A stretch of 64,000 nt of DNA from an uncultured Methanomassiliicoccales archaeon. GTDB lineage: Archaea > Thermoplasmatota > Thermoplasmata > Methanomassiliicoccales > UBA472. A program made the position numbers and the translations under genes. Position 1 is the stretch's first letter. Each line of letters starts with the position of its first letter. This document shows, piece by piece, positions 9,859 through 23,473 of this stretch. The stretch spans positions 1,952,001-2,016,000 of the forward strand of contig OY968769.1 in assembly GCA_963695345.1 (NCBI GenBank), given 5' to 3'. The notes beneath the pieces are model-generated. The model was not told where the DNA came from, searched no databases, and saw only the letters and a program-made list of their open reading frames with translations.

Positions 9859-10977
9859 ATGTCATTTTTTACTCATGAGGACAAGGTGAACCCAAAATCA
9901 CTTAGTTCCATTGACCTTCACGACCATGTTGCAATTGTTTATGAGACGCGACAGAGCATGTTCGACCTTCTCGCGGAGCTGTGCAAGATCGGCCTGGAGA
10001 GGAACGAAAAGTGCTTGATTTCGACATATGAGGGGAAAGAGATCGAGACGCACCTCCGGCGGGCCAGGATCGATGTCGATTCAGCCTTGTCATCCGGTTC
10101 CCTGGTCATTCGAGATGTCCCTAAGATATTCCCCAGCGAGGCCAGTTTCGATCCAGGCCGGACCGTCGCTTTGTTCGAGGGCTTGATCAAAGAGGCGTTA
10201 GATCAAGGCTATTCCGGGTTGAGAGTATTCAATTCATCGTATTCTCCATCACCCCTCGAAGACCCTAAGCTCCATCTCGATTACGTCAAGGATATGGGGC
10301 GGGTGATGAGGGATAATAAGGTCGTTCGGATCAGTCTCTATGATCTGGACGATAGAAAGCCCGACATCATCATAAACGCCATTCTATGCCATCCGACGAT
10401 CATCCTGAGAGGGATCGTCTGCAACAATTTTTTCTATATCCCCCCCGAGCAGCTGTTCGGCCCCAAAGGCGGTTCCCCCGAACTGTACCGGCTGCTGGAC
10501 AACCTGATCGATGTCCATCAGAACGAGCTCAGTCTTAAGGAAAGCCACGAAAAGCTGGAAACGACAAATCGTATTCTTCGCGAGGAGATCACCAAGAGGA
10601 AGATGGTCGAATGGGCCCTCTTGTCATCCGAACTGCGTTATCGCAATACCTTGGACTCGATCAACGAGATGGTCGCTGTCATCGACCGGGACTACAAGGT
10701 CACCCTGACGAACAAGGCGATGGAGACCATGGGAGACACGCTGGGGGTCGACTGCCGCTTCGTCGGTAAGCCATTATTCGAGGCTTTCCCGCATCTCTCA
10801 AAAGAGGAAATGGATGAATACGATCATGTGTTCAGGACCGGAGAGAAGATCGTCACTCAACGAGCCTACTCCCATAACGGCCTAATGGTGTGGGCCGAGG
10901 TCAGCAAAGTACCGATGATGGAAGGAGACATAGTTGTCAATGTGACAACGATTGTCCGCAGTTTGCATAAGCAGTAG
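9859..10977 (+). CDS. MEDS-domain + coiled coil + PAS sensory protein
   Basis: DHVAIVYE...GLERNEKC...GYSGLRV...SLYD...CHP...NFFYIPPE (MEDS pattern), then SELRYRNTLDSINEMVAVID...NKAM (PAS). Confidence 0.8.
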   Translation: MSFFTHEDKVNPKSLSSIDLHDHVAIVYETRQSMFDLLAELCKIGLERNEKCLISTYEGKEIETHLRRARIDVDSALSSGSLVIRDVPKIFPSEASFDPGRTVALFEGLIKEALDQGYSGLRVFNSSYSPSPLEDPKLHLDYVKDMGRVMRDNKVVRISLYDLDDRKPDIIINAILCHPTIILRGIVCNNFFYIPPEQLFGPKGGSPELYRLLDNLIDVHQNELSLKESHEKLETTNRILREEITKRKMVEWALLSSELRYRNTLDSINEMVAVIDRDYKVTLTNKAMETMGDTLGVDCRFVGKPLFEAFPHLSKEEMDEYDHVFRTGEKIVTQRAYSHNGLMVWAEVSKVPMMEGDIVVNVTTIVRSLHKQ

Positions 10978-11278
10978 CAATTTTGTCCTGATGAGCGTTA
11001 AAAAAAGAAGGCCCTATTTTCACTATTGATTCTCACGTATCGACGTTAATATACCATGGTGGCGATTATCCAAATGGGATATGGGAGCACTCGATACCAG
11101 TACATTCAAGAGCGGATGCCATAAGGATCGAATTCGACACCACCTCGCTCCCCTCCTCCTCTTTTTAAATTTCAGTTCTTGAGAACAAGGATCTCAACTC
11201 ATTGGAAGCACGAAGGTTCGTAGCGACGATAACGGCGAATTCGGCAATTATTAATATGGTTTAATCGTTCAAGGATTA

Positions 11279-11297
11279 GTTGGATGTATCATCCAAT
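11279..11297. promoter_or_regulatory. Palindromic operator candidate, copy 1 (btuF promoter)
   Basis: GTTGGATGTATCATCCAAT, about 23 bp downstream of TATTAATA (11249-11256); 18 bp identical to the copy upstream of cobT. Confidence 0.8.
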
Positions 11298-11336
11298 TGC
11301 GGCTGTAGGGGCTGCGAATAGGGGGAAAGGATATCT

Positions 11337-12416
11337 ATGGCAAGCAAGAAAGGGGCAATAATCGCTGTAATCGTCGTCATCGCATTGGTGGCCAGTGGAG
11401 CATTCGTCTTCATGGGGATGAACAAGGCCAAGACCAACGAGATAGGCGCAATCACGATCACTGACGCATTGAGCAACAACGTAACCTTGAACTCGACACC
11501 GCTAAGGGTGGTTTCCGCATCACCGAGCACCACTGAGCTGCTCTACGCGATGGGAGTCAACGGATCAATAGTAGGGGTCACCGACTATTGCGACTATCCG
11601 GTCAACGGAACCGGAAAGTCGCCCAAGGATATCTTCGAATCCATAGGCGGTTTCTATTCACCCAGCTATGAGGCCATTGCCGGACTCGATCCGGACATCG
11701 TGCTCTTGGACGCAGGGGTCAAGACGCACAAGGACATGATGACCCAGCTCGCTGCTGTCAATATCAAGTACGTCTCACTGTATCCGGGCAAGAACATCAC
11801 CGAGATCCAGAAGAACATCGTACTTCTCGGGAAGATATTCAGCAAGACGACCACCTCCTCGGCCATAATCAGTGACATGGACTCGAAATTCTCGGCGATC
11901 ACGACCGCGATCGGGAACGTGTCCGCCAAGCCCAGCGTCATGGTCATGGTCGGTTTCAGCCCTGACATCTGGGTCAACGGCGGCAAGACCTTCATCAACG
12001 ACATCATAGTCGCATCCGGCGGGGTCAACGTGTTCGCCAACTCGTCGAGCTATGCCACCATCACCAAGGAAGGCGTGGTGGAGGCCAACCCCGACATAAT
12101 AATCGTCACTTCGTCGATGATACCCGGACTGACACCGCAGCAGGTGCTGGACCAGCTGGCCGCTGACCCGATCCTGGGAGGCCTGGGCGCTGTCCAGAAC
12201 CACAAGGTGTACGTCCTTCAGGACGACGCGGAGGGCTGCTTCCTCCGCTCGGCGACCCGTGTGACCCAGGCTACCCAGGTCCTGGCGGACATACTGTATC
12301 CGACGGTATTCGGCGAGACCATCCCGAACATACTGGGGGACGGCTACAAGGACTACCTCCCGGACAGCTGGGGCACCGGCACGAGCGCGCGGACGACCAT
12401 GACGACGGTCGCGTGA
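11337..12416 (+). CDS. btuF: Corrinoid ABC transporter substrate-binding protein
   Basis: N-terminal membrane anchor; PLRVVSASPSTTELLYAMG, VGVTDYCDYP, FINDIIVASGGVNVF; heads the cobamide salvage operon. Confidence 0.85.
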   Translation: MASKKGAIIAVIVVIALVASGAFVFMGMNKAKTNEIGAITITDALSNNVTLNSTPLRVVSASPSTTELLYAMGVNGSIVGVTDYCDYPVNGTGKSPKDIFESIGGFYSPSYEAIAGLDPDIVLLDAGVKTHKDMMTQLAAVNIKYVSLYPGKNITEIQKNIVLLGKIFSKTTTSSAIISDMDSKFSAITTAIGNVSAKPSVMVMVGFSPDIWVNGGKTFINDIIVASGGVNVFANSSSYATITKEGVVEANPDIIIVTSSMIPGLTPQQVLDQLAADPILGGLGAVQNHKVYVLQDDAEGCFLRSATRVTQATQVLADILYPTVFGETIPNILGDGYKDYLPDSWGTGTSARTTMTTVA

Positions 12417-12420
12417 TCAT

Positions 12421-13465
12421 TTGAACGGTTCTGTGGTCGAGCGGGCCAAATCCAGACTGTTGCTCATAGTGATAGCTGGAAGCATCTCGCTCACCCTGCT
12501 TTTTTTCATCTCATTGAGCATCGGCGCATACCGTATGAGCTTCGAGACCTCCATATCATCCTTCTTCAACCTCGTCTCCAATTTCGGCAACCCTCTGAAC
12601 ATGGACGAGAACATCATCATGAACTCCCGCCTGCCCCGGACCGTCTCCGTCATCGCGGTGGGGATCGGACTTTCCGTCGCCGGAGCGGTCATGCAGGCCA
12701 TAATAAGGAACCCCCTGGTCGACCCTTACATCACCGGGGTATCATCGGGGGCAGCGCTCGGGGTGTCATTGGTCGTGCTGGGCGGGGTCTCGCTCGCCGG
12801 GGTCGGCATGTTCTCCATGCCCATAGCCGCCTTCATCGGAGCCATATGCGCCTTCGGCCTTACCATGGCGCTTGTGCGAGGCCGCGGGAGGCAAACCTAT
12901 CAGCTTCGTCCTGGCCGGTGTCATGATCGGACTGGGACTTTCCTCCTTCACGAACATTCTGGCCGTCCTCAATCCAGATGAGCACAAGAGCGTCCTGTTC
13001 TGGATGTTCGGCTCGTTCCAGTCGGTGACTCCGATGCAGACGCTCATCATACTCATCCCCACGATCACGATCGTCGTCATCATGCTGGTCTTCGCCCGGG
13101 AGATGAACGTCATCCTTCTCGGGGAGGAACAGGCGGGCCAGCTGGGGCTCAATGTCCGTTCGTTCAAATGGACAATGATGATACTGACATCCTGCGTCAC
13201 CGGGATATGTGTGGCCTTCACCGGCGTCATCGCTTTCCTGGGATTGATCGTCCCGCACTCCGCCCGGATGATCGTCGGCAGCGACCACCGTCTCCTCCTT
13301 CCGGCGTCGATCGTCATCGGGGCGAACGTGCTGCTGGCCGCGGACATCGTCGCTCGCTCGGTCATCATGCCCTCGGAGCTGCCCATCGGAGCCATAATAT
13401 CGTTGATAGGGGTCCCGTTCTTCGCGTACCTGCTGATCAGGAGGGGGAAAGAGTATGGAGCCTGA
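12421..13465 (+). CDS. btuC: Corrinoid ABC transporter permease (FecCD family), frameshift near 12870
   Basis: SRLPRT, GAVMQAIIRNPLVDPYITGVSSGA, LGEEQAGQLG, GVIAFLGLIVPH, ELPIG. Confidence 0.9.
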
Positions 13466-14252
13466 GGGTAAGACCATCACCGTCAAGATCAATGGAATAT
13501 CGTTCGGCTATAACGGGAAGAACACCCTGGAAGGGATCGACCTGGAATGCTCCAAAGGGGAGTTCGTCGGATTGATCGGCCCGAACGGCTCAGGGAAGAC
13601 CACATTGCTGCGGTGCATCAACGGCGTCCTGAAACCCAAGGTGGGAACGATCTTCGTCGAGGGGAAGAACATCGACAAGATGAAGATCAAGGAGATAGCC
13701 AGGGTCTGCGCCAACGTCCCGACGGACGCGGCCGAGGACCTGACGCTCACGGTCCACGAGTTCGTTTTCCTGGGTAGGTATCCGTACGTGAGCGGAATGT
13801 GGTGGGAGAGCAAGGACGACGAGGAGATCGTCGACAAGGCCATCTCCACGTTCAAGCTCGAGCACCTGGTGAAACGCCGGCTGAACGAGCTCAGCTCCGG
13901 CGAGCAGGCCCGGGTGCTTCTCGCGAAAGCCGTAGTGCAGCGTCCGCTGGTCATGCTTGTCGACGAACCGTCGGCGCATTTGGACCTGAGATACAAGCTG
14001 GAGGTCATGGAGGAGCTGCACGCCCTCTCCAGGACCGGGATAACTGTGATTTGCGCTTCCCACGACCTGAACCTGATGTCCAAGTTCTGCGACCGGGTGC
14101 TGATGATCGGCCAGGGCAAGATCGTTTCGTTCGGTCTGCCCTCGGAAGTGATGACCGAGCAGAACATCCGTGAGGTCTACGGGGTCGAGGTCCGGGTGTT
14201 CCGCGAGGACGACGAGATATACGCCATTCCAAAGAGGTCGATAAGGCAATGA
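13455..14252 (+). CDS. btuD: Corrinoid ABC transporter ATP-binding protein
   Basis: GPNGSGKTT, LSSGEQAR, LVDEPSAHLD, SHDLN. Confidence 0.92.
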   Translation: MEPEGKTITVKINGISFGYNGKNTLEGIDLECSKGEFVGLIGPNGSGKTTLLRCINGVLKPKVGTIFVEGKNIDKMKIKEIARVCANVPTDAAEDLTLTVHEFVFLGRYPYVSGMWWESKDDEEIVDKAISTFKLEHLVKRRLNELSSGEQARVLLAKAVVQRPLVMLVDEPSAHLDLRYKLEVMEELHALSRTGITVICASHDLNLMSKFCDRVLMIGQGKIVSFGLPSEVMTEQNIREVYGVEVRVFREDDEIYAIPKRSIRQ

Positions 14253-15385
14253 ACATCGAGGAACTGGTCCGCTCGGACCTCCTGAACATAAAACGGCCGA
14301 TACACGGCGGGCTGGGCTGGAAATACCAGGGCGTGGAGGACTTCAGCTCTAACCTGAACCCGCTGGGCCCGCCGCCGCAGGTGCGGGATTACATGCTGGA
14401 GGCGGCCGACAAACTGATCTACTATCCCGACGACAGCGGTTCGGAGCTCAAGGACGCCATCTCCCGGCGCTTCGGCGTCAACCGGGACAACATCATGCTC
14501 GGTGCCGGTTCGGCCGAGCTCATCCGGCTGTTCCCGGACGTCTTCTTCAACAAGGGGGACGGGGTCATCATGCCCCGGCCGACCTTCGCCGAGTACCAGT
14601 TCGCCCTGAAGATGCGGGGTGCCAGCATACACGATTTCCCGCTTTGCGAGATCGACGGGTTCCATTTCGACTTCGCCCGGCTGAACTACATGATCGAGTC
14701 CGGATCGAAGGCTGTCTACATCTGCAACCCGAACAACCCCACCGGCGTGGTGGAAAGCAGGAAGCGCATCGTCGAGATCATCGAGGAGTGCGAAAGGAAG
14801 AACACCATCGTCTTCCTGGACGAGACGCTCCTGGAGCTGGTGGACAACGCCCGCGACCTGACCTGCGTCTCGGAAGCGGAGAGCCATGACAACCTGTTCA
14901 TCATCCGTTCGTTCACCAAGTGCTTCGCCATCCCCGGACTGAGGGTCGGGTACGCCATCGGATCGAAGGACCTGATCCGGCACATGGACAACGCCCGCCT
15001 GGCGTGGAACCTGGGCCAGGTGGAGATGCATGTCGCCGCAAGGCTCTTGGACGATTGCTACGGTCACATCGAGACGGCCGCCCGGCTGATGGCCGAGGAG
15101 AAGCCCTATCTGCTCGATGCCATAAAAAGAACGGAAGTCGTCTCGGCCTCGAGGCCGGACGCGTTCTTCTTCTTCAACCGGGTCAACGGCGGCCTGGACT
15201 CGAAGCAGCTGAAGGAACTGCTCCTCCGTTTCAACGTCCTGGTCCGGGACTGCGGTTCGTTCGGAAGGCCGTTCGAGAAGTTCGCCCGCTTCGCCATCAA
15301 GACCCATGACCGCAACGTTCACCTGGTGGAGGCGTTCAAGCGGACCGCCGAGATCATGGAGAACCTGAAGACCAAGGGTGAATGA
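14249..15385 (+). CDS. cobD: L-threonine-O-3-phosphate decarboxylase (class I/II PLP aminotransferase fold)
   Basis: HGG, DFSSNLNPLG, CNPNNPTG, RSFTKCFAIPGLRVGY, LVRDC; located in the cob operon. Confidence 0.87.
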   Translation: MNIEELVRSDLLNIKRPIHGGLGWKYQGVEDFSSNLNPLGPPPQVRDYMLEAADKLIYYPDDSGSELKDAISRRFGVNRDNIMLGAGSAELIRLFPDVFFNKGDGVIMPRPTFAEYQFALKMRGASIHDFPLCEIDGFHFDFARLNYMIESGSKAVYICNPNNPTGVVESRKRIVEIIEECERKNTIVFLDETLLELVDNARDLTCVSEAESHDNLFIIRSFTKCFAIPGLRVGYAIGSKDLIRHMDNARLAWNLGQVEMHVAARLLDDCYGHIETAARLMAEEKPYLLDAIKRTEVVSASRPDAFFFFNRVNGGLDSKQLKELLLRFNVLVRDCGSFGRPFEKFARFAIKTHDRNVHLVEAFKRTAEIMENLKTKGE

Positions 15386-16392
15386 CATGCTGTCGGACCT
15401 GTACCTATACGGTCTACTCATACTCGTTCTGGCGGTGGTCATCGACCTGCTGCTGGGGGAGCCGCCCGAACGCCGCCCATCCGGTGGTCTGGATAGGCAA
15501 GGTCATCGGGTTCATGGACAGGCACACCAAGAGGACCGGCAGGAAAGGTTCCGAACGGGCGAGGGGTGTGCTGCTGGCCCTGGTGCCGCTGCTGCTGTTC
15601 CCATTCGTGTTCACGCTGCTGCTCTTCCTGCTGCGGGACCTGTTCGGCGCGCTGGTCTGGGCCATCGCCTGCGCGATCCTGCTCAAGACCATGTTCGCCA
15701 TCAACGCCATGGGGAAGCACACCCTGCCGATCCAGAAGGCGCTCGAGCGGGGGGACATGGAAGCGGCCCGCAAGAGCGCTTCAATGATCGTCTCCCGCGA
15801 CGTGAACAAGCTGGACCGGGAGCATATCATCTCGTGCGCGGCCGAGTCGGCGGCGGAGAACACGGTGGACAGCATTTTCTCGCCGTTGTTCTTCTTCGGG
15901 CTGGGCGGCATGCCGCTGATCATCTTCTACCGGGTCTCCAACACGCTGGACGCGATGGTCGGTTACATCGATCAACCGTATACCCACGTCGGCTGGTTCA
16001 GTGCCAAGCTGGACGACTGCACGAACTACATCTGCGCCCGCATTTCGTTGCCGTTCATCCTGCTGGCGCTGATGATCCTGGGCATGGACTGGAGGGGTGC
16101 CTGGAGGGACGCCAAGAAGTACCACAGGGCGACCCTGTCGCCGAACAAGGGCTGGTCCATGTCCGCGTTCGCCGGTGGACTGGGCATACGGTTCGAGAAG
16201 GTGGGGTGGTATGTCATGGGTGACGGACCACTGCCCACCGACCCGAAGGTCATCGGGAACACCGTCAAGGTGATGAAGGTCTCGGCGCTCCTTTTCATCG
16301 CACTGGTGGTGGTGCCGTTGTTCCTGTTCGTCGGGCTCAATGTCCAGATATATATCGAAAACCTATTCTCCGGTTTGTTCGGGTGGTTGTGA
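15378..16392 (+). CDS. cbiB: Adenosylcobinamide-phosphate synthase, frameshift near 15465
   Basis: GEP..HPVVWIG, IVSRD, ESAAENTVD, NTLDAMVGY, AKLDD, SPNKGW. Confidence 0.93.
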
Positions 16393-16394
16393 GC

Positions 16395-17529
16395 ATGGGC
16401 AAGGTGGATGTTACTACAAGATCGAAGAGGTGGGGGAGAACACGGTGCTGGTGGTCCGGCTGCCGCAGCGAGATGAAGGTCCTGAGCACGACCGTGCTGA
16501 ACGGCGGGTTCTCGGTATCGGACACCTCCTCTCCGTCCAGGTCCCCATCCACTATAATGGCACCGACCCGGAGTCGGAGGTAGTGGAGATCTGCGGGAAG
16601 CTGGGGCTCTGCGCCGAGTCGGTCGGTTTCATGACCGCCGTCGACCTGAAGAAGGTCATCACCATAGTCAGCGAGGAGTACAACGGCATCAACGCGACGG
16701 TGGTGGCTACATCCGGCGTGAAGAACGCCGTCTATGCCGGGGAGCTCATGACCGATGCGCTGGTGCGCGGACTGAACGGTCCCGGGACGATCAACATCAT
16801 CGTGGCCCTGGACAGGCCGCTGCACGAGACCGGCATGGCCAACTCCCTGATCACCATCACCGAGGCCAAGACCGCCGCCCTCATGGACACCAAGACCAAG
16901 GGGACCGGTACCACCAGCGACGCCATCGCCATCTGCTGCCCCGAAGGCGACGGGGAGAAGTATGCCGGAACCGCGACGGACGTCGGCATCTGCATGGCCC
17001 GGGCGGTGCGCAAGGCGGTGGCCGCCTCGACGCTCAAGTGGTATGCCACGTCCGGGACCGGTGGACTTCATCAAGCTGCTGGACGACCGGGGCATCACCA
17101 TGGAGGAGATGTGGACCGCGGCCAACAAGCTGGTGTTCCCCAACCCGGACTGGCCGGAGGGATTCCTGAAGGGCAGGTTCGATGGAACGCATGAACCTGC
17201 TGAGGCAGGACATCAACGTCAACGCCATGGTCAAAGGGGCGATTCTCCTGGAGGACGCGGGCAAGGCCCAGGACCTGTATGGCCTCGACAACGGAGTGTT
17301 CGATTCGGACCCGGTCCACCTGTTGGCCGATGAGCTCATGGGGATCGCGCTGGCCGAGTACATCACCGGCACCAAGGGCCTTTTCGAGTACGTTCGCTAC
17401 GACCGCAAGAAGCCCGGCATCCTGGCCGAGCTTGGCCCGTTCCTCGACGATATCGTCGGGGCGCTGATCGGGGCGGTCATGTCCAGGATATACTCAGATC
17501 TACTGGAGGCGGAAGGACGACTACAATAG
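16395..17529 (+). CDS. cbiS: Fused adenosylcobinamide amidohydrolase (CbiZ) / alpha-ribazole phosphatase (CobZ), CbiS-type, frameshifted
   Basis: CbiZ motifs GFMTAV, GTINII, TEAK, TGTTSDA, YAGTAT, followed by CobZ-like DINV, DPVHLLADE, YDRKKPGIL..LGPFLDD. Confidence 0.8.
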
Positions 17530-18320
17530 GCGCGGTCAAAGCGGCATTCTCGATGTTCACGATGATACCGCTGGATGTCGAGGGCGAGGAGGTCGTCGGG
17601 CTGTCGAAACGGTTCTACCTCATCGTGCTGGTGGGAGCATTCTACGGATTGATCGCCGGATCGCTGATGTGGGTCATGTCCCACGTCTTCACGACGCTTG
17701 ACGGCGGGAGTACTGGCATTGCTGGTGGTCCACGGGCTTAACCGTTTCCTGCACTTCGACGGGTTGAGCGACTTCGGCGACGGAATGATCTGCAGCGGTG
17801 ACCAGGAGAAGAAGATGAGGGCGGTCAAGGACTCGCACACCGGCGCCGGCGGCATAGGCTATTCCATCGTCTTCACCGCGCTGAGCATCGTCGCGCTTGG
17901 GCGAGCTGTCACCGCAGCTGGTCTTCTTCGGACCGTTCGTGGCCGAGCTGCTGAACAAGAACGCCATGGTCTTCGCCGCCTCGGCCGGTTCTTCAAGGGA
18001 AGGACTGGGCGGCATATTCGTCAAGAACGCGTCGGCCAAGACCGCCGCCATATCCGCCCTGATATCGCTGGCGTTCATCGTCCCGGTCAGTCTCGCCATC
18101 AACTGGTATTACGGACTGTCGATGTACTGGCTGCCTCCTAATGATGGTGGCGCCGCTGGTCATGAGCTGTCTGGTCGGAACGATCGCGGCCAGGATCGCG
18201 ATGAAAGGGTTCGGCTGCGTCAACGGGGATGTGCTCGGCGCCACCAACGAGTTCTCCCGGCCGTTCGTTCTGCTGACCGTCTCGGCGGTGGTCTGGTGCC
18301 TGGCCACGCTGCACTGGTGA
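17526..18320 (+). CDS. cobS: Cobamide (adenosylcobalamin-5'-phosphate) synthase, frameshifted
   Basis: FSMFTMIP, LHFDGLSDFGDG, KDSHTGAGG, GFGCVNGDVLGATNE; start codon uncertain (ATA). Confidence 0.9.
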
Positions 18321-18920
18321 CGGCCGGCGGCAAGGGCAGCCGCATCAGCGAGCTGGGGGTGGAAAAACCCTTGGTCCTGATCGCTGGCGTGCCCATGATC
18401 GACCGGTTACTGGACGAGCTGGCCAGATCATCGATGATCGACCGGATGTACGTATCGGTAAGTCCCTTGGCCCCGATGACCAGGGAGCATCTCAAAGGGA
18501 TGGATGTGATAGTGATCGATACACCTGGAAATGGATACGTGGCCGATCTGAACGGCTCGATGAACGCCATCGAGGAGGATGCGGTGCTGGTCTGTCCCTC
18601 GGACATGCCGCTGATCACCTCCGCCGGTGTTGACGAGCTCATCGCCACCTATGACGAAAGGGCTCAGCCCTCACTGACCGTGGCACTGCCGCCTACAGGT
18701 CATCGAGTCATTGGGATTGATCGTCACCTATATCGAGGAGATCGACGGCAGGCCGCTGACGTTCTGCGGAGTGAGCGTCGTCGACCGTCTGGAGATGCTG
18801 ACCGGTAACTTTTTGCCAGGCGGTTATTTCGTTACCGAAAAGGAGGAGTTCGCGGTGAACGTCAATACCGTCCACGACCTCCGCCTGGCAGAAAGGATTT
18901 TGGAGGAGAGACCTAAGTAG
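18296..18920 (+). CDS. cobY: Adenosylcobinamide-phosphate guanylyltransferase (archaeal), frameshift near 18700
   Basis: ALVTAGGKGSR, EKPL, TPGNGYVADL, SDMP, NVNT..DL. Confidence 0.88.
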
Positions 18921-18928
18921 TGGTGCGT

Positions 18929-20043
18929 CTAGTGTTTGGCTAGGGCCATGATCTTCTCGTAGTTCTTCTCGATCTCGGCGAACATGCTCTTGCAGGTGAT
19001 CGCCCCGCTGCTTTGGCAGAAAGCGGCGATGGATATCCCGCCGGCGCCTACCCCTTCCTTCACCAGGCCTTTCTCGTAGAACGTAAGCCCTTCGTGCTTC
19101 GTCGTTGTGAAGTCCAGGTTGGCCGCCAGTACCGGCACATGGCCGATCTGCTTCACGATCCCGACCAGGTCCGCGGACTGGTCCTTTATGATCCATCTGG
19201 TAGTCCCCAGCGCGACGTTTTCCAGCGCCTTGGGTTCCATCGCCTTGACGATGGCCAGGACGGCGGCCATCTGTGTTCCGCCCGGCCAGAATGACCGGGA
19301 CCTTCCGCGCCGCCCCGACGATAAGGCCGGCAGCCGCCGGCATCATCGGGTCGCCGACCGCCGCCATTGCCAGCATGGCGTCGTTCTTCATCTGCTCTAT
19401 GGTCGATCTTGATCTGGATATGCCTTCCTTGGCTATGCTGGACTTGAGGGAGTGAGGGTTCTCCGGCAGCGTCGAGCTGACCTTGCCGTCTGCGTTGTAG
19501 CCCAACGCCAGCAGCACTGCCAGGGCGGTCGTCGTTCCGCCTGCGATGCTCTCCCCGACCACCAGATAATCGGAGACCTTGGCCAGGTTCTCACCGGCGA
19601 TGATCGCGTTCTCGATAGACACGCTTTGGGTCCCGGACCGCCGCTCCGGTCTTGATGTCCTCACCGGGATGTCCTTCCAGTTCGAAATAGGGAGCATGGG
19701 GTCTGACCCTGACGCCGCCGTTGGCGGCGTAGAACGGCATTCCCGTCAACCCTATCGCGCTCATGGTGACCAGGGCCGGGGTCGGTATCCCGTTCGGTGT
19801 GACCGGAACGCCATCGATGCACTTGCATCTCCCATAGTAAAGCAGTTCGATGTCGGCGGCCGGGGTGAAATCGGTGATGGCCGGTACGGCACCGGCGGCC
19901 GAGATGCCCGGGATCTTCGCCGTTTCGGTGTTTCCGATGACGCAGATGAAGGTCGGTCTCTTGCCCCAGACCTTCTCCACGAACACCTTCGCCTTCTCCT
20001 CCTCATTGCAGATCAGGATGTCCTCAGGGACTTTGAAGCTCAT
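18929..20043 (-). CDS. cobT: Archaeal nicotinate-nucleotide:lower-ligand phosphoribosyltransferase, frameshifted
   Basis: TETAKIPGISAAG, TPAADIE, PTPALVT, GESIAGGTTTA, GDPM, GTTRW, VKEGVGAGG. Confidence 0.9.
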
Positions 20044-20064
20044 ATCTTGGCACCTCCGAATTGA

Positions 20065-20083
20065 GTTGGATGATACATCCAAC
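20065..20083. promoter_or_regulatory. Palindromic operator candidate, copy 2 (cobT promoter)
   Basis: Minus strand reads GTTGGATGTATCATCCAAC, 15 bp downstream of CGAAAAAG-CATTAAATA (BRE/TATA) and upstream of a GGAGGTG RBS. Confidence 0.8.
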
Positions 20084-20154
20084 GTATGGGGCCAAGACTA
20101 TTTAATGCTTTTTCGAGGCAGAAACGATGGCACGGTTGTGTGCGGACCGCTCGT

Positions 20155-21213
20155 CTAGATGAAAATCCTCGGTAGCAGGTCCCCGAGCTGGATACATTTC
20201 GATTCCTGTTCGCAGAACCTTTTTCCCTCGGCGGAAGTGTCGAGTCTATCGCAAATGGCGTACGGCACCTTCATCACGATATGTTCGCCGGTGACCGACG
20301 AGCAACCATGGTCAACGATGACGGCGATGCGGCAATTGGAGAACGATTTCGCGTTCCGCATGAGCTCCTTGTCCACCGCCTCGAGGAGCTCCACCTTCTC
20401 TCTCGGGGCTCGTTTGTGGGAGATGTCGTCCGTCTCCTCGACGTGCAGGAACACATCCCCGTCCTTGATCATCAAGGCCGCTTCCTTGATGCTCTGTTTG
20501 AACCCCGGTACCCGTTTCGACTTGATGCCTAGGAACGCCGCCACACCCAGAGCGGAAGGGCTCTTTGAGAGGATGGTCATCGACGGTATCTTCCTCCCAT
20601 TCATCCTGGCCTCCTCCGCGAGCTTGCCGAACCCGCCTCCCCATGGCAGCATCGTTATGCCGCCGGTGTGTTCCGCCACGGATTCCGCGAATGTCCCGAA
20701 CTCATAGAGGTCCTCGGGCATCACGTTGGCCGGGCCTGGTGGTTTGGGGAGGTCAAGTATCCGGCTGCTCTCCACCGTCATCACGGCCTTTCCGCCCTGG
20801 TAGAAAAGGATGCTCGGTTTCATCCCAGATATGTGCTTTTTGCTCTTCAGGACCGCCTTCTGCAATTGGATCTCATCCGCGACCGACACTTTGTAATACC
20901 ATTCCACACGGCCATCCACGATCTTGGCCGGCGTCATCCGGTAGGCGATCCGGGAAGCGTCCAGGGGAAGGCCCATCCCGAAAGCCTCGATGACCCCCCG
21001 GGGTACATCGAGAGGCTTGCCGGAGAACAATTGCAGAAGGAAGAAGTGGGTGTATTCCCGGGCGTCAGTGCATCCCAACTCGCCGCTCGACGCAATAGAA
21101 TTGATGAATTTCATGTTGGAAATCTGGAGCGGGGTCTTGTAGTCAAGCGCTGGGACCTTTTCGTCGGTCGCTCCATCGAGCATGATCACAAGCGTCCGCT
21201 TTGAGTTGGACAT
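20155..21213 (-). CDS. ApgM-like (cofactor-independent phosphoglycerate mutase / alkaline-phosphatase superfamily) metalloenzyme, divergent
   Basis: IMLDGATD...KTPLQ, LPWGGG, FLHVEETDDISH, K...LEAVD, VDHG.S...EH...VP metal-binding motifs; the usual nucleophile segment is atypical (EYTH). Confidence 0.75.
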   Translation of the reverse strand: MSNSKRTLVIMLDGATDEKVPALDYKTPLQISNMKFINSIASSGELGCTDAREYTHFFLLQLFSGKPLDVPRGVIEAFGMGLPLDASRIAYRMTPAKIVDGRVEWYYKVSVADEIQLQKAVLKSKKHISGMKPSILFYQGGKAVMTVESSRILDLPKPPGPANVMPEDLYEFGTFAESVAEHTGGITMLPWGGGFGKLAEEARMNGRKIPSMTILSKSPSALGVAAFLGIKSKRVPGFKQSIKEAALMIKDGDVFLHVEETDDISHKRAPREKVELLEAVDKELMRNAKSFSNCRIAVIVDHGCSSVTGEHIVMKVPYAICDRLDTSAEGKRFCEQESKCIQLGDLLPRIFI

Positions 21214-21222
21214 ATCATCCAT
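21205..21222. promoter_or_regulatory. Palindromic operator candidate, copy 3 (overlaps the start of the ApgM-like gene)
   Basis: Plus strand GTTGGACATATCATCCAT matches 15/18 to GTTGGATGTATCATCCAA; flanking TTGAGTTGGA is identical to copy 2. Confidence 0.65.
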
Positions 21223-21287: not shown

Positions 21288-23473
21288 TCAGTGACCGGAC
21301 AGGGCGATCGCGCACTGCCCGGCCGAGATGCAGCCGTCGCCGTTCGGCAGCTGATCCGGCAGAAGCAGCTCGAACCCTTTGGAGCGGGCGATCTCTCTGG
21401 TCAGCCGGCAGACGGTCGCGTTATAGGATACCCCTCCAGTGATCCCTATGGCGCCAAGGCCTTTGGAATCGGCCTCGAGGCAGGCGATATCGACCAACGA
21501 TTCCAGGATCGCCTTCACGAAGCTCACCGCCAGGTCTTCCTTCCTTCCGTCGGACTCAAACAGCTGGGCGAACAGCGGGATGGTCTGAACCACTCCATTC
21601 TTCACCTCCGCGGCCAGCTCGACGGTCGGTTCTCCCTTCTCCAGCCATCTCTCCAGCTTCATGGCCGGCTCTCCGTCATAGGAACGATACTGGCATATCC
21701 CCAGGTAGCAGGACAGGGCATCCATGACCCTTCCCATGCTGGTGGTCTTCGGGCTTTTGGTCATCAGCTTTCGGAGCAGGGCGGCGTCGACGTCGGTGAA
21801 ATACCCGCCATCCTGTCCCAGAGTCTCCCGGATGGCGAACACCAGCCGCTTGACGTCGTAGACCGCCTTCTCACCGCCGAGCAACGGTATCTCCTGCAGA
21901 TGGCCGACCCTGCGATAGGAGTCGAACCCGGAGTGCAGGACCTCGCCGCCCCATGCGTTGCCATCGTCACCGTAGCCGGTGCCGTCCAGGGTCAGGGCGA
22001 CCGTCTCATCGATGCGGTGGTCCACCATCAGCGCGGCGGCATGGGCCCAATGGTGCTGGACCTCCACGAGCCTGACCCCGGACCCTTCGGCCAGACGCTT
22101 TCCCAGCCGGCGGGTCGAGTATCCGGGATGCAGGTCGATGCCGATCGCCTCGACGGTGTCCGCTCCCAGAAGCCTTCTCTGGTAGGCCAGCCCTGATTCC
22201 AGGAACTCGAGGACGCCGGCAGAGCTGGCATCCCCGATGTACTGGGTGGCGTACAGCTTCTTACCGATCGCCAGCGATCCGGCGATGCTCTCCTGCGCCC
22301 CCAGCCCGATCGCCGTCCCTTCGAAAGGAAAATCGACGGCGACCGGGATGTGTCCTCTCGACTTGCGAATGTAGAACGTGCGGTCATCGAAGCTGCGTAC
22401 CACCGAATCATCGCACCGGTTGACGATCTCCCGATCGTGGAACAGGTAGCAATCGGCCCCCAGCGCAAGGGCGTCCTCGTCGCGCAGGACCATCGGTTCA
22501 CCGGGGACGTTGGCCGAGGTCATTACCAGGGCATCCTCGTCCAGCTCGGAGAACAGGATGTGCTGCATCTCGGTGTACGGCAGGAACACCCCGATGTTAC
22601 CCAGTCCGGGAGCTATCATTTCGGTGACGGCAGAATCCTTCTTGGGCAGCAGCACGATCGGTCGGTGTGTCGATAACAGCAGCTCTTCCTCGTGCCGGTC
22701 CGGTGAAGCGTACCTCCATGGCCGATTCTATGTCCCGGACCATGATGGCGAACGGTTTCTCCCGTCTCCGGTACCACTGCCTCATCCGGGGAAGAGTTGA
22801 GAGGGTGCAGCATAGGTGCATGCCTCCCCAGCCCTTTCGCAACGCCAATAAAACCCTTAACGAGCATCGAGGCGAACGTCGGGATCGGTTCGCCTGGAAC
22901 CGACCTGCCATCGCCATCAAGCAGCCGGAACTTCGGGCCGCACACCGGACATGAGATGGTCTGGTGATGGAACCTTCTGGCCCCCGGGTCTCCGTACTCT
23001 CGGTGGCAATCGGGGCACATCGGGAACTGGTTCATCGAAGTGAGCTCGCGGTCATACGGAAGGTCATTGATGATCGAGAATCGGGCACCACAATCGGTGC
23101 AGTTGGTGAACGGATAGAGATGGCGTCGGTCTGACGGGTCGAACATCTCTTTCTGGCAGTTCTCGCATACCGCGGTGTCGTTCGGGATGCCGACTCCCTT
23201 CTGGCCGCTGGAACTTTTCACGATCTGAAAACCAGTTCCGGCCAGTTCACCGTTGGGCCGGCCCGGGGACATCTCCACGCTGTCCAGCCGTGCCAGTGGA
23301 GGAAGCGTCCTGCGCAGTTCGGATAGGAACAGGTCCGCGTCACCATCGACCTCAATGACGACGTTCGAACCGTTGTTCTGCACATATCCGTCCATTCCCA
23401 GCTGGGTGGCCACCCGATGGACCGTAGGCCGGAAGCCGACCCCCTGGACAATGCCGCGGACAGTTATACGCAT
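21288..23473 (-). CDS. hypF: [NiFe]-hydrogenase maturation carbamoyltransferase, frameshifted near 22700-22850
   Basis: GIVQGVGFRP, CTDCGARF, CPDC..EY, CPVCGP, MTSAN, DLHP.Y, QHHWAH, DGTGYG, PNGDG. Confidence 0.96.

Follow-up and report, generated by a model that had tools for sequence, protein, structure and literature searches.

Bacterial genes for B12 uptake, salvage and de novo synthesis are joined in regulons that are controlled by their end product through B12 riboswitches. To our knowledge, archaea do not possess the B12 riboswitches used by bacteria, and for this reason archaeal B12 sensing and regulation remains largely open. Bacterial protein regulators of the CarH/AerR type carry the B12-binding domain PF02310 and act mainly as light sensors. 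Among archaeal transcription factors, the repressors MDR1, NrpR and TrmB bind at or just past the TATA box. A study by Rodionov et al. (2003, J Biol Chem) reportedly defined a DNA signal, the 'CBL-box', for a hypothetical archaeal B12 regulator; as far as we know, it named no regulator for this signal, and no Methanomassiliicoccales genome existed at the time. The Methanomassiliicoccales are methanogens of the gut and rumen whose methyl-reducing metabolism requires corrinoid proteins. Here, we describe a computational analysis of a 64,000-nucleotide stretch of DNA (the window) from an uncultured member of this order, positions C1:1952001-2016000 of a one-contig 2.56-Mb genome (G000), and of a palindrome, TTGGATG-N3-CATCCAA, that lies in the promoters of its cobamide genes. 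The palindrome is probably the operator of a protein-controlled cobamide regulon in this order, with a 194-residue protein composed of a winged helix-turn-helix (wHTH) and a DUF4443 domain as a candidate corrinoid-sensing repressor. The motif is in excess, sits at promoters, is conserved together with the genes that it precedes, and is linked to DUF4443 genes in a lineage where no B12 riboswitch was detected in the genome under study.

A search of the window finds GTTGGATGTATCATCCAA exactly at 11279-11296 on the plus strand, before btuF, and at 20066-20083 on the minus strand, before cobT, as an initial annotation of this DNA had stated. The 15/18 variant that it placed at the start of an ApgM-like gene is a third copy with three mismatches (21205-21222), and the flank that it described as common to the cobT and ApgM-like copies, TCCAACTCAA, is present. 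At up to three mismatches the window holds four matches, a count that includes the cobT site twice because it also matches on the plus strand; 0.04 are expected, and none of 100 shuffles reaches four. The symmetric core is the 17-base sequence TTGGATG-N3-CATCCAA, in which arms of 7 bases enclose a spacer of 3 bases rather than the 5-nt loop first proposed, and across 96 distinct sites the arms are near-invariant and the spacer variable, the pattern of an inverted repeat. We refer to the three cores, which are assigned to neither strand, as O1 (TTGGATGTATCATCCAA, 11280-11296), O2 (TTGGATGATACATCCAA on the plus strand, 20066-20082) and O3 (TTGGACATATCATCCAT on the plus strand, 21206-21222). O1 and O2 are exact palindromes that score 35.1 and 32.2 bits, O1 being the top of a genome scan with a matrix built from all collected sites. 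O3, a weak putative operator with three mismatches, scores 16.7 bits and ranks eleventh in the genome, yet this score stands well above the 99.999th percentile of 7.3 bits and is not what a random match would be expected to give. The flanks of the copies differ beyond 17-21 shared bases, and an origin of the motif in a repeat or mobile element was therefore rejected.

All three copies lie close to promoter-like sequence, as read from the letters. O1 is 40 nt upstream of the btuF ATG (11337), behind a TATA-like stretch at 11246-11267 (plus strand) in which AATTATTA (11246-11253) and TTTAATCG (11260-11267) end 26 and 12 nt, respectively, upstream of the core. O2 is 22 nt upstream of the cobT ATG (20043, minus strand), and the TATA-like box ATTAAATA (20099-20106, minus strand) ends 16 nt upstream of it. 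O3 overlaps both candidate ATGs of the ApgM-like gene (21222 and 21213), and an AT-rich stretch ends 7 nt upstream of it. The earlier placement of every copy about 15-25 bp past a TATA-like box is only roughly right.

In the whole genome the exact palindrome occurs six times. The matrix scan returns eight sites at 28.0-35.1 bits, followed by scores of 20.6, 17.8, 16.7 (O3) and 14.0 over a background of at most 11.5 bits. All eight strong sites lie beside TATA-like boxes, and six of them precede genes that make corrins, salvage cobamides or are putatively concerned with cobamide uptake: the btuF operon; cobT; cbiT, followed by cbiL, cbiF, cbiG, cbiH, cbiC and cbiD; sirC-hemA, oriented away from cbiT; a zf-like+CbiA gene upstream of cobQ; and an operon in which genes for a DUF4430 protein, CbiQ and a double CbiO follow that for a secreted propeller of the PQQ type, and which resembles an uptake system of the energy-coupling factor (ECF) type. 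The motif is thus not scattered over unrelated loci, a pattern that the initial annotation had named as one that would refute its proposal. The predicted regulon is wider than the one it saw, and takes in de novo corrin synthesis, zf-CbiA/cobQ and the ECF-type operon, as well as a nickel/cobalt transporter (NiCoT) gene in relatives.

Conservation in relatives extends these observations. Of 41 Methanomassiliicoccales genomes, G000 included, 29 have the exact palindrome and none has the reversed control. In a sample of the phylum it occurs in 36 of 401 genomes (control 2/401), that is, besides G000, in 27 of 62 genomes of the order, in none of the 42 from Thermoplasmata families f8-f12, and, at one copy each, in 8 of the other 296. 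In five genomes that lack an exact copy, 8-28 copies are found at up to two mismatches, against 0-1 for the control; their one-mismatch copies, of the form TTGGATR-N3-YATCCAA, group together and lie in the same clusters. Nine loci from three genera were examined, and eight of them have the motif at the promoters of btuF and cobT; it is thus kept before orthologues of the genes at which it was first noticed. Exact copies precede BtuF and CobT homologues in G003, G005, G006, G007 and G010, and in three genomes of genus g2 (G008, G015, G021) BtuF is preceded by a pair of variant copies spaced 23 nt apart. In G015 a one-mismatch copy separates the CobT homologue from that of ApgM, and in G008 and G021, where no CobT match is listed, such a copy adjoins the ApgM homologue. 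In locus L191 (G012) two exact copies flank genes unmatched by the ten window proteins used as queries, apart from a weak BtuD match. The equivalent of O3 is identical in G003 and G006 and closer to the consensus in G005 (TTGGATGATATGTCCAA); in the g2 genomes a related near-palindrome lies no more than ~70 nt upstream of the point where the aligned part of the ApgM homologue begins, and a search for an equivalent in G010 found none. When open reading frames (ORFs) of 61 motif loci were clustered, BtuF recurred in 13 loci, zf-CbiA in 12 and secreted proteins in 7 and 6, and a MEDS gene, as well as the dehydrogenase and GT3 protein described below, were among the groups of four loci.

No Rfam family reaches its threshold in the window, and the cobalamin riboswitch family RF00174 has no match in the window or in the whole G000 genome, in a search whose control was positive in 7 of 14 genomes; the statement that no B12 riboswitch is visible here thus extends to the genome. 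A second suggestion of the initial annotation, that the motif acts as an RNA hairpin at the 5' ends of transcripts (now with a 7-bp stem and a 3-nt loop), is highly improbable. The arms are perfectly complementary, and the btuF and cobT motifs lie between TATA box and start codon, so that they could be transcribed. Archaeal transcription starts about 25 nt downstream of the TATA box, however, and the distance from the best TATA-like 8-mer to the motif is 0-7 nt at five promoters of G000, so that many copies would be untranscribed; at cbiT/sirC and in loci L035 and L036, moreover, two copies flank a single TATA. At arm pair 7/11, the 96 distinct sites comprise 63 G-C pairs and 33 deviants (9 of them G-T) with no compensatory pair, the other arm positions being fixed by the selection pattern and uninformative for covariation. 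The arm sequence itself, and not just its pairing, is kept across the order and in Hadesarchaea, and the motif is therefore read as a protein operator.

The initial annotation had proposed that a dimeric transcription factor encoded outside the window shuts down the uptake and remodelling of corrinoids and the activation of lower ligands, and the conservation of the motif, its concentration at cobamide genes and the absence of a riboswitch support this proposal, in which binding, dimer state and repression are inferred. No regulator of the type that it had suggested, in which an HTH is joined to a domain for corrinoid or cobalt binding, was found; the best candidate is a winged-helix protein with a DUF4443 domain. 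The gene for this 194-residue protein (G000:C1:2459654-2460238) lies ~444 kb past the end of the window, directly upstream of the operator of the PQQ-DUF4430-ECF operon. The protein matches PF14544 (DUF4443, E 1e-31), PH0730-like_N and CggR_N, and sequence profiles relate it to PH0730 of Pyrococcus horikoshii (2p8t, E 1e-19) and to the DNA-binding domain of CggR (E 2e-7). Identity between the G000 protein and its orthologues ranges from 43 to 91%, and a helix with the sequence GEGSMRTI is nearly invariant in 19 orthologues. A structure model (mean predicted local distance difference test, pLDDT, 89.9) matches 2p8t over its full length (template-modelling score 0.70-0.74). The modelled wHTH superposes on DNA-bound CggR with a root-mean-square deviation of 1.2 A over 62-63 columns, and the C-terminal half of the model, ~100 residues, resembles the insertion domain of AspRS, a GAD-like fold.

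This candidate gene and the palindrome are linked in several lineages. A copy of the motif with at most two mismatches lies just after the 194-residue-type gene in 13 of 30 loci, a count that leaves out three-mismatch matches and a two-mismatch match in L064, a paralogue-type locus. At 13 of 67 orthologue loci a copy with at most one mismatch lies 600-950 nt from the gene start, with no other in ~10 kb. Families f8-f12, in which the motif is absent, also have no DUF4443 gene (0/33). The other Thermoplasmata families have one DUF4443 homologue of ~200 residues, and two of five such genomes (G464, G497) have 2-3 matches to the core motif, one of which closely follows the DUF4443 gene. The order in G464 (L253) is regulator gene, gTTGGATAATACATCCAAc, PQQ/PKD secreted protein, CbiQ, double CbiO and S component, the last of which matches ECF-ribofla_trS, DUF6580 and ECF_trnsprt.

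A similar pairing occurs in Hadesarchaea, where the related sequence TTGGAT-N5-ATCCAA is present at 1-2 copies in each of four genomes and, mostly as a single copy, in 19 of 31 relatives (control 0). Outside the order, in Hadesarchaeal loci (L178, L179, L185, L186, L196-L199 and L231-L245) and in L253, this regulator family and palindrome would thus guard a small uptake operon with a DUF6580/ECF-S-like membrane protein and often a transcobalamin-like DUF4430 protein. Twenty Hadesarchaeal motif loci were compared. A conserved membrane-protein gene follows the motif directly in 16, a 190-residue DUF4443 gene lies within 1.5 kb in convergent orientation in 14, and a DUF4430 gene stands between motif and DUF4443 gene in 9; the four loci without a membrane, DUF4443 or DUF4430 gene have odd spacers. 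The Hadesarchaeal regulator gene also follows arginine-pathway-like genes, as read from their N-termini only. The membrane protein has no match in Pfam or among PDB sequences. An Atlas match to DUF6580 (score 0.93) is a lead only, and Foldseek returned nothing at E <= 0.001, with ECF S components among the non-significant rows, for a poor AlphaFold2 model (pLDDT 63). The link to DUF6580 and ECF S components thus comes from the G464 protein and not from the Hadesarchaeal one. The DUF4430 protein gave no useful match to PDB sequences; DUF4430 is the C-terminal domain of transcobalamins (PMC4350170).

Further evidence comes from a 321-residue paralogue that combines wHTH, DUF4443 and DUF2111 domains and has GGATGGATTATATATCCATCC just upstream of its start. 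Its recognition helix, GEGSIRTI, differs by one residue from the GEGSMRTI of the 194-residue type. The corresponding sister palindrome, GATGGAT-N5-ATCCATC, has exact copies in 28 of 41 relatives (control 0); at 21 of the 28 loci it occupies the divergent promoter between the paralogue and the A2-component gene, ending 5 nt before the paralogue ATG, at four it lies ~110 nt before mcrB, and three are unmatched by the queries. In G000 it is found at C1:2366857-2366875 and 2374684-2374702 (L201, L215), before mcrB and in the paralogue/A2 divergent promoter, where McrB is confirmed at 651 bits and the N-terminal half of A2 at 356 bits; a third site with one mismatch precedes an MtaC-like gene (1848478). 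The sister palindrome looks like the mark of a methanogenesis regulon. Since the paralogue carries such a palindrome on its own promoter, the DUF4443 family is tied to the TGGAT-N5-ATCCA core, and there is good evidence that the family reads such cores, with a flanking base, T or A, that would separate the two regulons.

We consider the following model probable. A symmetric dimer of the 194-residue winged-helix regulator would bind the palindrome and, because the copies lie next to, around or just downstream of the TATA region, would block the TATA-binding protein and transcription factor B (TBP/TFB) or RNA polymerase. When the cofactor is plentiful, the corrinoid-loaded dimer would bring about end-product repression of the genes that take up B12, salvage cobinamide, assemble the nucleotide loop and make the corrin ring. 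The alpha/beta domain at the C-terminus of the regulator would serve as the sensor of the effector, which is most probably a corrinoid. Binding itself, the dimer state and stoichiometry, repression rather than activation, and the effector are parts that we infer from sequence. A broader proposal is more tentative, and we hold it somewhat short of an even chance: that DUF4443 proteins are archaeal ligand-sensing repressors reading TGGAT-N5-ATCCA, that the 194-residue form is a direct corrinoid sensor which replaces the B12 riboswitch and whose ancestral target was ECF-type B12 uptake (a DUF6580-type S component with a transcobalamin-like DUF4430 protein), and that the DUF2111-fused paralogue controls mcrB, A2 and itself.

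Several observations weigh against the 194-residue protein as a corrinoid-sensing repressor of the regulon. At 54 of the 67 orthologue loci there is no motif next to the regulator gene, and where the linkage exists it is always with the same kind of uptake operon, so that conserved synteny could explain part of it. DUF4443 genes are carried by all 41 relatives, in forms of ~194 and ~320-350 residues, and their presence or absence therefore cannot discriminate within the order. Pfam and NCBIfam searches found no known B12- or metal-binding domain in the protein, PF02310 included, and the matrix scan of G000 found no operator of its own at its gene. Two of the eight strong sites, at the AceTr/YaaH-like and the Tdh-like/GT3 genes, lie at genes without a known B12 link, and the 17.8-bit site, upstream of a gene for a stand-alone B12-binding corrinoid protein (G000:C1:2353120; L006 5209-5847, plus strand), lies upstream of the likely TATA and misfits simple occlusion. 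Finally, the 321-residue paralogue shares the recognition helix and could bind the cobamide sites as well or instead.

This last point leads to an explanation in which the palindrome is the cobamide operator but is bound by another regulator, either the DUF4443+DUF2111 paralogue or a different factor, the 194-residue protein being a mere syntenic neighbour. The presence of both paralogues in all relatives, the near identity of their recognition helices and the many orthologue loci that lack a nearby motif are in its favour, as is a Fur-family gene divergent from zf-CbiA in G012 (L032). We nevertheless consider it unlikely: the paralogue has a distinct palindrome, ATGGAT-N5-ATCCAT, on its own promoter at 21 of 28 loci, the TTGGAT-type site of Hadesarchaea is paired with a 190-residue stand-alone DUF4443 gene, and ORF clustering of the 61 motif loci revealed no further recurrent HTH gene. 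The Fur-family gene was met in G012 only and was set aside, as were Lrp/AsnC-type and CBS-HTH genes near two G000 sites, which do not recur. Alternatively, operator and regulator could be as we propose and the signal be cobalt or a corrin precursor instead of the finished cobamide. In G001 (L025) two operators flank the gene for a NiCoT nickel/cobalt transporter, and this also counts against corrinoid sensing; a CobN-like cluster, named by sequence reading only, occurs in four motif loci; and the regulator has no recognisable B12-binding domain. The regulon, however, joins B12 uptake (btuFCD and the DUF4430-ECF operon) and salvage (cbiZ, cbiB, cobY, cobS, cobT) to de novo synthesis, a content like that of the end-product-controlled B12 riboswitch regulons, and its sole Hadesarchaeal target is a DUF4430/S-component operon with no metal transporter. 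A cobalt or precursor signal is more doubtful still than a different regulator, and corrinoid sensing by the 194-residue protein is the reading that we prefer.

Within the window, the btuF operon (11337-18808, plus strand, from Pfam matches and gene spacing) comprises btuF, btuC (as two ORFs, with an apparent frameshift), btuD, a cobD-type aminotransferase gene, cbiB, cbiZ, a PgpA-like (CobZ-type) gene, a cobS fragment and a cobY-type nucleotidyltransferase gene, with Pfam matches to Peripla_BP_2, FecCD twice (profile positions 2-128 and 125-311), ABC_tran, Aminotran_1_2, CobD_Cbib, CbiZ, NTP_transf_3, PgpA and CobS. To judge from the spacing, the genes from btuF to cobY would form one transcript. 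The archaeal-type cobT gene (18708-20043, minus strand) is read as two overlapping ORFs, 19591-20082 and 18708-19697, with apparent frameshifts; the second has a weak DBI_PRT match, and the CobT N-terminus MSFKVPEDIL is kept after the motif in G002 and G005. The ApgM-like gene (20155-21222, minus strand) matches Pfam Metalloenzyme and is a probable regulon member. It scores 108 bits against the NCBIfam apgM subfamily, below the cut-off of 320, and 59 bits against a 'proposed homoserine kinase' family. Its homologue adjoins cobT in G003, G005, G006, G010 and G015 and in G008 and G021 lies beside the one-mismatch operator. CobD is here a plain 378-residue aminotransferase, and as a speculation, the ApgM-like enzyme might therefore supply the missing L-threonine kinase of the nucleotide loop.

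Directly upstream of the btuF operator lies a MEDS+PAS sensor-type gene (9859-10977, plus strand), a position that is kept in G003, G005, G006 and G007 and, weakly, in G010; it was set aside as a regulator, being without a DNA-binding domain. Several genes are split or shortened, namely btuC, cobS, cobT, hypF, cbiL, cbiG and cobQ (window 12421-13465, 17182-18141, 18708-20082 and 21288-23473; also L005 and L001), and the one-contig genome has a completeness score of only 85%. These splits have the look of assembly errors (insertions or deletions) and not of genuine pseudogenes.

Elsewhere in the genome, the AceTr/YaaH-family transporter gene (G000:C1:338077; L002 5121-5774, plus strand) has a perfect operator 3 nt past a TATA-like box and would be an unexpected member of a B12 regulon. 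The genes for the Tdh-like Zn-dehydrogenase and the TrpD-like glycosyltransferase (GT3) (G000:C1:1622435; L004 4360-5475 and 3232-4350, minus strand) also have a perfect operator, which sits between two TATA-like boxes; on its other side ~350 nt lack a convincing ORF, and the pair recurs with the motif in L019, L035 and L036. The site before the corrinoid-protein gene, TTGGATGGTACATCCAT, is a hybrid with one arm of each palindrome type and could answer to both regulators or have another mode of action.

The analysis yields a defined operator together with a named, purifiable candidate regulator. Its gene list flags candidates in the ApgM-like enzyme, the Tdh-like dehydrogenase with GT3, the AceTr-like transporter and the PQQ-propeller and DUF4430 surface proteins, and the sister palindrome before mcrB, if confirmed, would point to a dedicated regulator of the key methane-forming enzyme. 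A text search of the literature, in an incomplete library, returned no publication mentioning CBL-box, DUF4443 or DUF6580, and none of its publications on Methanomassiliicoccales cobamides, judged by title, deals with regulation. The proposed protein-controlled B12 regulon with a defined operator also provides a first functional lead for DUF4443.

Compared with known systems, the proposed regulon has the target set of the bacterial cobalamin riboswitch (RF00174) regulons: uptake and salvage of B12, synthesis of corrins and transport of cobalt, with the end product as the presumed off-signal in both cases; the element there is a leader RNA of ~190 nt, whereas here it is a 17-bp palindrome in promoter DNA. 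With the CBL-box it shares the idea that archaeal cobalamin genes carry a DNA signal read by a B12-regulating protein, and it differs in that the present exact motif was not found in the 42 genomes of families f8-f12. Protein-based corrinoid sensing that controls transcription, as proposed here, is also the principle of the CarH/AerR-type regulators, but these use PF02310, which in the CarH/MerR type is fused to a DNA-binding domain and which is absent from the 194-residue candidate. Like MDR1, NrpR and TrmB, the candidate would repress by occlusion from a palindromic operator overlapping the TATA box/BRE (TFB-recognition element) or the start site, although protein family, motif and regulon are others. 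The CggR/SorC-type repressors (PDB 7oyk, 8r3g) have a similar N-terminal DNA-binding domain by profile and fold and are metabolite-sensing, as is proposed for the candidate; their effector domain is the SorC sugar-phosphate domain and not the putative one of DUF4443, and the operator seen here is a single 7-3-7 palindrome. A further relative is PH0730 (PDB 2p8t), a full-length homologue that shares the GEGSxRT helix, whose structure has been known since 2007 with no function, operator or ligand deposited, and for whose family the present analysis proposes a function.

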